This document shows, in pieces, positions 6,001 to 9,000 of a stretch of DNA of 13,414 nt. Numbering within the stretch: the first letter of the stretch is position 1; the number at the start of each line of letters is the position of its first letter. The position numbers are program-made. The stretch is from NCBI GenBank assembly GCA_043767805.1, contig JAYUGC010000083.1, positions 1-13,414 on the forward strand, read 5' to 3'. The DNA comes from Pseudomonadota bacterium. GTDB lineage: Bacteria; Bdellovibrionota; FAC87; UBA2466.

Positions 6001-9000
6001 CTTTGGCCCCGAGGAAACCGTTTTGCCACCTTCCGACATCAAGCGCTTGGAAGAGGTTTTGAAGCAAATCGACCAGATCAGCGCCCGGATCGATAAAATC
6101 TCCGGCGACCGCTAGTCTCCCCTCTAAAAACTTGGAAATGGCTTTCGGCCGGGTGGCTGTGCTACACCCCGGCCATGAAGCGCGCCGTCACAGTGCTTTC
6201 GAGCGGACTCGATTCCAGCGTGGCTCTGGCCATGACCTTGGAGCAAGGCTGGTCCGTGCCCCTCGCCCTTACCTTCGATTACGGTCAGCGGGCGGCGGAA
6301 CGCGAAGTCGGCCACGCGGCCAAAATCGCGGCCCATTTCGGCATTCATCACCGAGCCATCCATCTGCCGTGGTTCAAAGAGTTCGCCCGCGCGGGCAGCC
6401 TCGTTCATCGGGCCGAACACCTTCCCTATCCGGAGACCAAAGATCTGTCGGACTTGGAGTACGGAAAGACCAGCGCGAAAGCCGTCTGGGTACCGAACCG
6501 GAACGGGATATTTCTAGAGATCGCGGCCGGCTTTGCGGAAAATCTCGAGGCCGATGCCATCATCGTGGGCTTCAACAAAGAAGAAGCGACGACATTTCCC
6601 GATAACTCCTTGGCGTACGTCGAGGCCTTGAATGAGGCGCTGCAGTTCTCGACGGCCAATGGCGTGCGCGTGCACTCTCCGACGGTAAATCTCGATAAGA
6701 CGGCCATCGTCGCCGAGGCGAAGCGTTTGAAGTTTCCTTTGCCGCTCGTCTGGAGCTGCTACGAGAACGGCGAGCGCATGTGCCGCAAGTGCGAGTCCTG
6801 CAAACGGCTGGAGCGCGCGCTTTTCGCGAACGGAGTGGAGCCTCATGCTTTCTTTTGAGACCCGCCGGCTAGAAGAGACGATCGTTTACGACGGCACTCA
6901 GCTCACGCCTCATTGGATTTTCCGAAAAACCGGAAAGCTCGGCGATGCCTTGGTCGCCTTCGAAGGCCCCGCGGACGTTTCCTTGGAGCATATGGTGGAC
7001 CTCGAGGACGTGGCTAAGAAGGCGCCGATTGCGAGCGACCGGATGCTGCACTTCATTGGGGAGTGGTTTCGGGACTCGCTCGAGGTCGGGGTTTTGCTCC
7101 AGCACCTCTTCGTGAACGAGATTTACGAAGAGCTTCTGGAGGCGGGTGTGAAATCTTTGCGCCGCCGGGGCAACGACATCTATTTCTCGGACCGTAAGCT
7201 CAGTGTTTCCATTGCGACGAAGTCGCCGGTCTCGGTGCTGATGCACGCGGCGGTGAATCTGACGAGCCAGGGCACCCCTATCCCCACGTCTAATTTGGCG
7301 GAGATGGGAATTGAGCCCCGGGCGTTCGCGGACGCCGTGCTCAAGCGGTTCTCGAATGATTTCGCCATCTGGCAAACCGCCCGGGTAAAGGTCACGCCCC
7401 GCTGAGCGAGCCTTCCTTGACGAAGGCTCATTGAAAACGCCGAGTAAGCTGCCAAAAGCGCTTGCCTTTTCGTACGTAAATCGCAACTATGCGGCCCTTC
7501 GGTCCCCATCGTCTAGAGGCCTAGGACGTCACCCTTTCACGGTGAAGACACGAGTTCGAATCTCGTTGGGGACGCATTGAGTCAATTATTTCAACTACTT
7601 ACCTACGATAACCGTGGCGTCGGCGCCACGGTAGTCATGGTCTCCCAGCGGATTAAGACTGGCTTCGCTCTAGTCTACCGCAAATATCAGCTCTCAAAGA
7701 TCGTAGAAGGGAGGACCGTGAAGCTCGGGACACCCGAAGCTGACAGCCTCGGAATTTTCCCGGGAATGAAGATTGAGGAAGCTAAGCAAGCCCTCGCTCT
7801 TGCCAGCGCCGACTCAAATGCGCGCTACCATGCCGAACGCAGACGCAAAATCCAAGAGCGACTTACCGAGCGGGAAGAGAGGACCACGGCGTGGTTACCA
7901 GGTGTCGAGATGGGACGTTCAAGAGGATTTGGCGCAAGTTTGATTGGTCAGAGGCATTTATCGATGGAAGTTTCGCTTCCGCTAAAAAGGGGAGTCTTGC
8001 GTTCGTAAGACTAAGAGGGGGAAAGGCTCAAAGTGGATAGCCATCGTTGATGGTCATGGATTAACTGCAGAGTATCAAATCGATCTCATCGCTCCAGAAA
8101 AGAAAAACCGCCGAAATTCATGGCAGGATGGGCGAAAGCTTGCGCAGCCGTATGGCCAGATTTGTAGGAAGCGGGGTTTCCATCCTTATCAATTCGAGAC
8201 CGCTTTTCGCCCCGAGCCGCTCAAACCAGGCACGGGAATAGAGGTTAACGTTGAACCCTCCGCCCAGCCACTTCTCCAGTCGGTAGTATGTGCCGCCGAG
8301 CCCGATTCGGGGTGCAAGAATTAGAAGACTCCCGCCGGGGGTTACCAAAGAGGCCAGGCGCGAAAAGGCCGAGTCAGGATTACTGACAAAATCGAGGACG
8401 CCAGCACAGACCACCCAGTCGTAGGTATGGGACAGTGCGAGCGTGTCCAAGTCAGCCAGACGGGTCTCGTCGGCAATTCCCTCCACCTGTTTCAGCATTT
8501 TTGGGCAAATATCCACAGCGGTAACCCTAAGCCCAGCTTCTTTCGCCCTTCGCGTGTAGAAGCCTCCCCCACAACCGACGTCAATGAGGGTTTTACCGGT
8601 CGAAAATTCCTCAGCTAAACTCAGTACGGCATCTCGCTCGCGATTTCGAAAATAGGAAAGTATCCCCCGAGAGACATTCATTTCGTAACCGAGGACGGCT
8701 TTGTTTTGGTAGTAGCGGATGGCCTTGCCCTTATGCTCGAGAGAAATGCCGTTAGGCGCGCTTTCTCGCTTCGAAAGACGCCAAAGGAAGGCGAGGAAAA
8801 AAGGTGTGAAAATCTGCAACGCGTGATGGATGGCAGCGATAGTGAGCCCGGTTTCCCAAGTAAAACCGCTTTTCTGGAGACCGAGCGCGAGGCCTCCTTC
8901 GAAAACTCCCACGTTGGCCGGCAACACCGGGACGGCTATAGCCACGTTTAACAAGACTAGAGAACCTAGAGCCTGTCCAAGATCGAGTGTTCCACTATTT

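Follow-up and report, generated by a model that had tools for sequence, protein, structure and literature searches.

The queC-DUF366 gene pair

The window (the whole stretch of DNA that was analysed, 13,414 nt) carries a queC gene and a DUF366 gene that overlap on the forward strand. The features relevant here are the following:

4172..6115, + strand: Obg GTPase, NadD-like nucleotidyltransferase and a 62-aa ORF without a family, a housekeeping run upstream (context only)
6175..6858, + strand: queC, cysteine-less 'PDN' variant, 227 aa (from the ORF, profile matches and subtype comparison)
6832..6858, + strand: two GGAG boxes (6832-6835 and 6837-6840), the DUF366 ATG and the queC stop, read from the sequence
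6845..7405, + strand: DUF366 (PF04017), 186 aa, minimal biotin/lipoate-ligase fold
7502..7575, + strand: tRNA-Glu(TTC), 3' of the pair (context, outside the system)

The open reading frames agree with a preliminary description of this DNA, in which queC (6175-6858) and DUF366 (6845-7405) were said to overlap by 14: the 3' end of queC and the 5' end of DUF366 share 14 nt on the same strand. Both GGAG boxes precede the DUF366 ATG, i.e., they sit within the end of queC, and the overlap suggests that the two genes are translationally coupled. QueC, the only full-length one encoded in this genome, matches PF06508 (E 5e-52) and scores above the cut-off of TIGR00364, and a profile search of its 227 residues returned no GATase match. 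DUF366, also present as a single copy, matches PF04017 over its full length (E 1e-53; 181.8 bits for a cut-off of 29.9). No CBASS or Qat genes were found within the 13,414-nt window. The genes for FolE, QueD, QueE, QueF and TGT lie away from the pair, as had been claimed for the Q-pathway genes, and because QueF and TGT are present, this genome needs preQ0.

Fold and active site of DUF366

The structure of DUF366 was predicted with high confidence (pLDDT 94.4). It is matched best by PDB 2ddz (sequence match E 4e-32; VIA-align Z 29.1, rmsd 1.1), followed in VIA-align by 18 biotin/lipoate ligase and octanoyltransferase chains (Z 13.5-9.8), a ranking with which Foldseek agrees (E down to 2e-8). 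The biotin/lipoate-ligase fold proposed earlier is thereby confirmed. The 2ddz entry presumably corresponds to PH0223 of Pyrococcus horikoshii, a protein of the same DUF366 family with no assigned function, which we take to be placed by SCOP and a Pfam clan with the class II aaRS/biotin synthetases; the fold assignment is, thus, probably not new. The further step, from fold to ATP-dependent activation of an acid, does not follow, as the match list includes LipB and a lipoyltransferase and, lower down, HisZ and polymerase-gamma entries, none of which is known to perform ATP-driven acid activation.

Residues conserved in DUF366 are Y15, G17, D52, D55, M67, H69, E73, Q86, D111, K118, S122, S130, H134, N138, P145 and K182. 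When the family profile is aligned by sequence with the Aquifex biotin ligase (2eay; E 0.0075), D111, K118 and N138 fall on the Asp of KWPND, the catalytic Lys and the Asn of GxGxN, respectively. D111 is kept in 127 of 134 DUF366 sequences, and K118 and N138 in all 134. In the accessible text of PMC2384007, KWPND and GxGxN are biotin ligase motifs and the Lys is critical for adenylation. Membership in the biotin/lipoate ligases, thus, holds in part: DUF366 has the core fold and the Asp/Lys/Asn set in common with biotin protein ligase, LplA and LipB (PF03099), whereas a GRGR or GGGA ligand loop occurs in none of the 134 sequences, and the pocket glycines of KxAG and GxGxN are replaced by Val or Ile at position 121 (134/134) and by His at position 134 (134/134). 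It also differs from the PF03099 ligases by its length of only 186 aa, its linkage to deazaguanine genes and a set of conserved polar residues that are new with respect to the ligases (D52, D55, H69, E73, Q86, R87, H134 and K182). No PF03099 match was obtained for DUF366 in a profile search, and its profile gave no usable alignment with the biotin ligase of its own genome (probability 0.2). Acyltransferases of the LipB/LipL type carry an invariant catalytic Cys; among the 134 DUF366 sequences no Cys is invariant, the commonest being Cys43 (101/134), which is Ala in the copy studied here.

Lacking both the GRGR loop and a pocket lined with glycines, DUF366 is, judged by its residues, not a biotin or lipoate ligase. 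It may be ligase-like at the ATP end, and its use of ATP is only predicted, since the GRGR loop is missing and R107 is variable in the viral copies (9 of 16).

A QueC variant beside DUF366

The partner QueC carries the motifs SSGLDS (position 9), YGQRAAERE (36), VPNRN (106), NKEE (134) and FPDN (141), and a zinc motif C195-x7-CxxCxxC, after whose last Cys the third residue is Leu in place of Arg. For canonical QueC (EC 6.3.4.20), the accessible part of a 2026 survey (PMC13329287) gives SGGxDS, YxQxHxxE, VPxRN, YPDC and a zinc motif. The two share the P-loop with one change (SSGLDS for SGGxDS), VPxRN, the zinc cysteines, at a spacing of 7 rather than 8, and the Tyr after the first of them (CY). 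They differ in that the present protein has FPDN in place of YPDC and, ahead of this motif, NxEE, lacks the His of YxQxH, and has Leu for Arg. The same survey text reports that E. coli QueC Y131F keeps partial activity. The missing His was rejected as a mark of the subtype, as many YPDC proteins also lack it. Most QueC neighbours of DUF366 share the NxEE..FPDN reading; the base-reading aromatic residue and Asp, identified in the accessible text of a preprint (bioRxiv 2025.09.03.674047), are kept in this variant, and the Cys is lost. The earlier statement that DUF366 'fills no known gap' therefore misses that its partner is itself a variant QueC without YPDC.

The Arg three residues past the zinc motif is found in 43 of 43 Cys-bearing proteins and 27 of 34 Gat fusions, and in 0 of 74 standalone PDN proteins. 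In PDN-type QueC, the position just before it holds a conserved Arg, which may replace the lost one. In a quick QueC tree of 155 rows (midpoint root, no bootstrap), the PDN rows fall together on one side of a single branch (SH-aLRT 93; 110 rows, of which two have no called motif), and this side splits into Gat-QueC (35 rows, 96) and the standalone, DUF366-linked proteins (75 rows, 93). YPDN is the reading in the Gat-QueC proteins of phage 9g and a Sulfolobales archaeon, so that NxEE..[YF]PDN is common to these (described in the accessible part of PMC6884629) and to the present QueC. The latter lacks the fused class II glutamine amidotransferase, while Gat-QueC mostly keeps the Tyr and the Arg; the 9g protein retains both, despite its PDN.

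A predicted complex of QueC and DUF366, with Zn and ATP included, scored 0.01 (mark 0.32) and has no bearing on binding either way.

Co-occurrence with one QueC subtype

A search for DUF366 homologues gave 682 at E<=0.001 among 833 candidates, and an ESM Atlas search returned DUF366 clusters only. Longer forms are rare (three among 7999 scored candidates). At the 80 best-matching genome loci (out of at least 556), a QueC gene is no more than 3.5 kb from DUF366 in 64 cases and directly upstream of it in 61. Several loci have the order queD-queC-DUF366-queE, some with folE added. Two QueC-DUF366 fusions (P0165 and G104) are placed apart in the QueC tree; each is a single case, in which a lost stop is possible.

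Genomes of three unrelated groups were scored with PF04017 and a profile of 30 PDN proteins. The PDN profile scores form two groups separated by at least nine orders of E-value. With the caveats that the profile was built from DUF366 neighbours, that kin are not independent and that many genomes are incomplete, DUF366 occurs in 202 of 205 genomes with a PDN-type QueC and in 0 of 126 with other types only. By group, and in the order PDN-type, other types and no QueC, these are 119/122, 0/72 and 1/7 in the phylum of the genome studied (201 genomes), 77/77, 0/8 and 1/26 in the class of a Pelotomaculum genome (111 genomes), and 6/6, 0/46 and 0/39 in the phylum of a Brevinematales genome (91 genomes). 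Because kin are not independent, separate switches of QueC type are far fewer than these counts. Of the 126 low scorers, 22 had their motif read: 21 have YPDC and one is divergent. As for the three PDN-type genomes without DUF366, two (G173 and G185) have a second, Cys-bearing QueC with YRDC, and in the third (G054) the contig ends 27 nt after queC.

Some Chloroflexi and several viruses have DUF366 next to a QueC that retains the Cys (YPDC, YRDC or FRDC in the viruses). DUF366, thus, does not imply PDN. As far as co-occurrence can tell, a PDN-type QueC implies DUF366, the converse fails, and the standalone PDN-type QueC appears to need DUF366. The proposed link of DUF366 to QueC and 7-deazaguanine metabolism is not only upheld but strengthened by this tie to one QueC subtype: on comparative evidence, DUF366 belongs to 7-deazaguanine metabolism, accompanies the standalone PDN-type QueC nearly always, and also persists by itself in salvage settings.

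DUF366 in viruses and archaea

DUF366 was found on 18 viral contigs, three of them near-copies, and 15 of the 18 have a FolE, QueD, QueE, QueC, QueF or DpdA-like gene in the fetched flanks. On four contigs (L017, L018, L023 and L016), the gene before DUF366 matches DUF6610 below the cut-off in three copies; DUF6610 is DpdA4 in the accessible text of PMC10516641. In one virus (L011), DUF366 adjoins a Gat-QueC fusion. Five viral contigs, 22-41% complete, have no adjacent queC, and among them one partial QueC match lies at a contig end. A search of cultivated phages gave one DUF366 match (MW495066), whose genes look bacterial. None was found on plasmids, and PADLOC has no match for DUF366. The archaeal sample comprised controls, 13 Thermococcales-like loci and one bacterial-looking locus. 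DUF366 is present in two of the 14 controls (M. jannaschii and M. acetivorans), was not found in phage 9g, Megan or S. acidocaldarius, and in Thermococcales is not near queC.

Retention of DUF366 without QueC

Among 61 genomes of the family to which an Oscillochloris genome (G206) belongs, DUF366 occurs in 17 and QueC in two, both among these 17. In these assemblies, which are mostly fragmented and where 4 of the 17 DUF366 matches are partial, 15 of the 17 DUF366 genomes, thus, lack QueC, and all 17 lack QueE. The full-length DUF366 copies are intact at 22 of 22 checked positions, and dN/dS is 0.08-0.26 among nine copies from QueC-less genomes, so these copies are under purifying selection. 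Since DUF366 is kept in this way without QueC, it is not just a QueC subunit, and an obligate subunit role was rejected. The view that it works with QueC is, therefore, too narrow: it need not, being kept without QueC in many Chloroflexaceae-like genomes.

The gene directly upstream of DUF366 is Vut_1/YhhQ in 7 of the 17 genomes. YhhQ is a preQ0 transporter, with a substrate that may differ between subfamilies, in the accessible part of PMC5372724. A strong DpdA match is found in 8 of the 17 DUF366 genomes vs 3 of the 44 others; the remaining 9 of the 17 have none. Near the QueC-less copies lie a DpdC-like DUF6884 gene, for which PADLOC DpdC matches are weak (E 3e-4 to 1e-2), and a nucleoside deoxyribosyltransferase gene. 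In four QueC-less genomes examined, TGT is present and QueF is absent. As the QueC-less pattern comes with an importer and DpdA, the substrate of DUF366 would be an importable deazaguanine, and DUF366 probably acts on the free base.

Predicted reaction and alternative explanations

DUF366 very probably has a role in the 7-deazaguanine pathway. A reaction that leads from some compound X to preQ0 would explain all four patterns seen: PDN-type QueC would require DUF366, and canonical QueC could do with or without it; on its own, DUF366 would be of use where an importer and DpdA are present, and it would be missing beside Gat-QueC, which ends at G+. X would most simply be ADG, a known intermediate, which is a tentative identification. 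We tentatively favour a reading in which two proteins divide the two QueC steps (CDG to ADG, ADG to preQ0) between them, and consider it possible, though somewhat short of an even chance, that the PDN-type QueC stops at the amide ADG and that DUF366 dehydrates ADG to preQ0. QueC would then yield ADG and release little nitrile, and DUF366 would bind free ADG in a rebuilt ligase cofactor site (D52, D55, H69, E73, Q86 and H134) and use ATP at D111, K118 and N138 to activate, then eliminate, the amide oxygen. The resulting preQ0 would pass to QueF/TGT, arcTGT or DpdA. In genomes without QueC, DUF366 would convert imported or recycled ADG to preQ0.

QueC relatives that stop at the amide have been published (Cap9, RoyL and QueC*, a 'proposed ADG synthase'). 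The QueC* of CP220, a dADG phage, was rejected as a PDN-type protein; it reads FPDC, which counts against ADG dehydration. The four preQ0/preQ1-type phage QueC examined read YPDC. To our knowledge, no amide dehydratase has the biotin/lipoate-ligase fold. The absence of QueF from the four QueC-less genomes and of a strong DpdA from 9 of the 17 also counts against ADG dehydration, as do the Cys-bearing QueC partners in some Chloroflexi and viruses, the lost GRGR loop with the variable R107, and the neighbouring Arg that may stand in for the missing one in PDN-type QueC. Moreover, 9g Gat-QueC led to dG+ in queC-deleted E. coli and did not restore Q (PMC6884629, accessible part); since this protein is YPDN and works without DUF366, loss of the Cys alone does not block the steps beyond ADG.

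In the role proposed for it earlier, DUF366 would be an amide ligase: CDG would be adenylated and then joined to ammonia or a different amine, leaving PDN-type QueC only to dehydrate. This reverse split has a better precedent in the fold than ADG dehydration and fits the retained Asp/Lys/Asn. QueE is missing from two genomes with queC and DUF366, a hint that they import an upstream intermediate, and DpdA3 may insert ADG and DpdA2 a little CDG (PMC10516641, accessible text). However, proteins of the sister PDN group carry a fused glutaminase, a sign that ammonia is used directly by the PDN active site; DUF366 adjoins a Gat fusion of this kind in one virus; and the DpdC-like DUF6884 near QueC-less copies suggests that preQ0, not ADG, is inserted. 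Such a ligase is unlikely but stays in contention. That DUF366 is a deazaguanine binding, channelling or repair protein, holding ADG or preQ0 or hydrolysing wrong CDG conjugates or CDG-AMP, seems more doubtful still: the filled cofactor pocket, the lost loop, the presence beside importers and several QueC types, and the non-catalytic members of the wider fold in the match list would all suit it, but twelve or so polar residues, invariant or nearly so, have the look of a catalytic set, and a general helper protein would be expected in at least some of the 126 genomes whose QueC is of other types only.

The kinship with Gat-QueC invites two further explanations, both improbable, the second slightly more so. 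PDN-type QueC might, as Gat-QueC may, make the free amidine base G+, from which DUF366, as an ATP-independent ammonia lyase, would form preQ0, also serving archaeosine-base salvage. The sister position to Gat-QueC, the dG+ formed by 9g Gat-QueC and its failure to restore Q (PMC6884629, as accessible), the many conserved acidic residues, which would suit a cation, and the loss of the GRGR loop, which fits the absence of ATP use, favour this. Nevertheless, free G+ deamidates to preQ0 spontaneously (PMC5699537), DUF366 beside canonical QueC is left unexplained, and the standalone PDN-type QueC has no glutaminase to drive amidine formation. Alternatively, DUF366 would supply nitrogen in place of the glutaminase domain, given that the PDN side of the tree consists of Gat fusions and DUF366-linked standalone proteins and that a search of 9g, Megan and S. 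acidocaldarius gave no DUF366; its retention where QueC is absent, its co-occurrence with a Gat fusion in L011 and the lack of an invariant Cys speak against it. Finally, DUF366 could have an unrelated job and simply travel with one queC clade. Its distance from queC in Thermococcales, the lack of a deazaguanine neighbour at 6 of the 80 best-matching loci and two ClpN-DUF366 fusions point that way, yet the neighbours vary (queC, queD, queE, folE, yhhQ and dpdA) and still belong to one pathway in bacteria and viruses, two QueC-DUF366 fusions exist, and purifying selection persists after QueC loss, so that hitch-hiking is very improbable indeed.

Returning to ADG dehydration or its G+ counterpart, the broader claim, that a large QueC subfamily is a half-enzyme and that DUF366 would be the first stand-alone maker of the preQ0 nitrile from ADG (or free G+), comes close to an even chance.

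Relation to known systems and significance

A comparison with the amide-forming QueC relatives sets DUF366 apart from Cap9/QatC deazaguanylation, as no CBASS or Qat genes are nearby and DUF366 has no conserved N-terminal Gly; with N-termini that vary, it was rejected as a deazaguanylation target. RoyL and CP220 QueC* belong to the same amide-forming set, and CP220 has no DUF366.

No paper naming DUF366, PF04017, COG2029 or IPR007162 was found in the literature searched, which lay outside subscription literature, SEED and KEGG. The accessible portion of a 2026 deazapurine mining preprint holds no matching passage. The 2026 QueC survey (PMC13329287) does not single out a PDN subfamily in its accessible text, and its neighbourhood table S2 may list PF04017. 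What is new here is the rule that links DUF366 to the PDN subtype, the relation of this subtype to Gat-QueC, and the occurrence of DUF366 in a salvage setting that lacks QueC.

DUF366 is, thus, a real, uncharacterised component of the known 7-deazaguanine pathway. The route to preQ0 has been described as complete with FolE, QueD, QueE and QueC; the present data point to a fifth component, which would serve a widespread QueC subfamily. If so, many bacteria and uncultured viruses would need five enzymes, not four, for preQ0, as probably would methanogens and Thermococcales, and a new salvage route would be defined, from YhhQ import through DUF366 to DpdA. DUF366 would perhaps be a new nitrile-forming enzyme with a ligase fold, and the comparison offers a possible handle on why 9g Gat-QueC fails to restore Q. 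It also provides a candidate function for a family with a structure solved since 2007, whose member PH0223 appears in the searched literature as one table entry.

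Gene neighbourhood and a second TGT match

Two further features flank queC and the DUF366 gene in the window:

5927-6115, + strand: 62-aa ORF that follows the NadD-like gene and precedes queC
8118-9737, - strand: fusion of a lysylphosphatidylglycerol-synthase membrane domain with a methyltransferase, adjoining an AcrB/CusA-type transporter gene

The 62-aa ORF has no match in Pfam or NCBIfam. Elsewhere in the same genome, a second TGT match (contig C148, 9133-11172, - strand; E 2.6e-104) corresponds to a 679-aa protein, the C-terminal part of which, judged by eye, looks like an MnmC-like SAM methyltransferase.

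Further QueC groups

One group consists of QueC fused to a class II glutamine amidotransferase and carries FPDN (locus L011:9971-11942; proteins P0293-P0301); one of its members directly follows DUF366. Several members of this group have lost the Tyr that follows the first zinc Cys, a residue essential in E. coli QueC. A second QueC group, this one tied to DUF366 and with the motif PxxED..[YF]xDCR (loci L158, from genome G332, L002, L004, L012, L014, and L015), is common to viruses and one Chloroflexia genome (tree support 80).

DUF366 without QueC

A Chloroflexaceae-like island (L155:8260-16300 in genome G310; also L154, L099, L166, L167, and L181) encodes YhhQ, DUF366, a serine-dehydratase-like protein, a nucleoside deoxyribosyltransferase, DUF6884, an HhH-like protein, and DpdA-like proteins. 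We read this island as a DNA modification system fed by salvage. Outside Chloroflexi, two genomes, G395 (L196) and G164 (L112), also contain DUF366 with zero QueC matches. In G395, folE adjoins DUF366, and G164 has QueF and TGT, with no QueD match.

Unusual DUF366 records

In two protein clusters (P0176 and P0270), a Clp N-terminal domain is fused ahead of DUF366; these fusions may have arisen artificially, from a wrongly called start site or from the assembly. Finally, the record MW495066.1 (L027, 'Microcystis phage MaAM05') holds secDF, glyS, fabI, fliM, and DUF366 on one stretch, which looks like bacterial DNA entered as phage.
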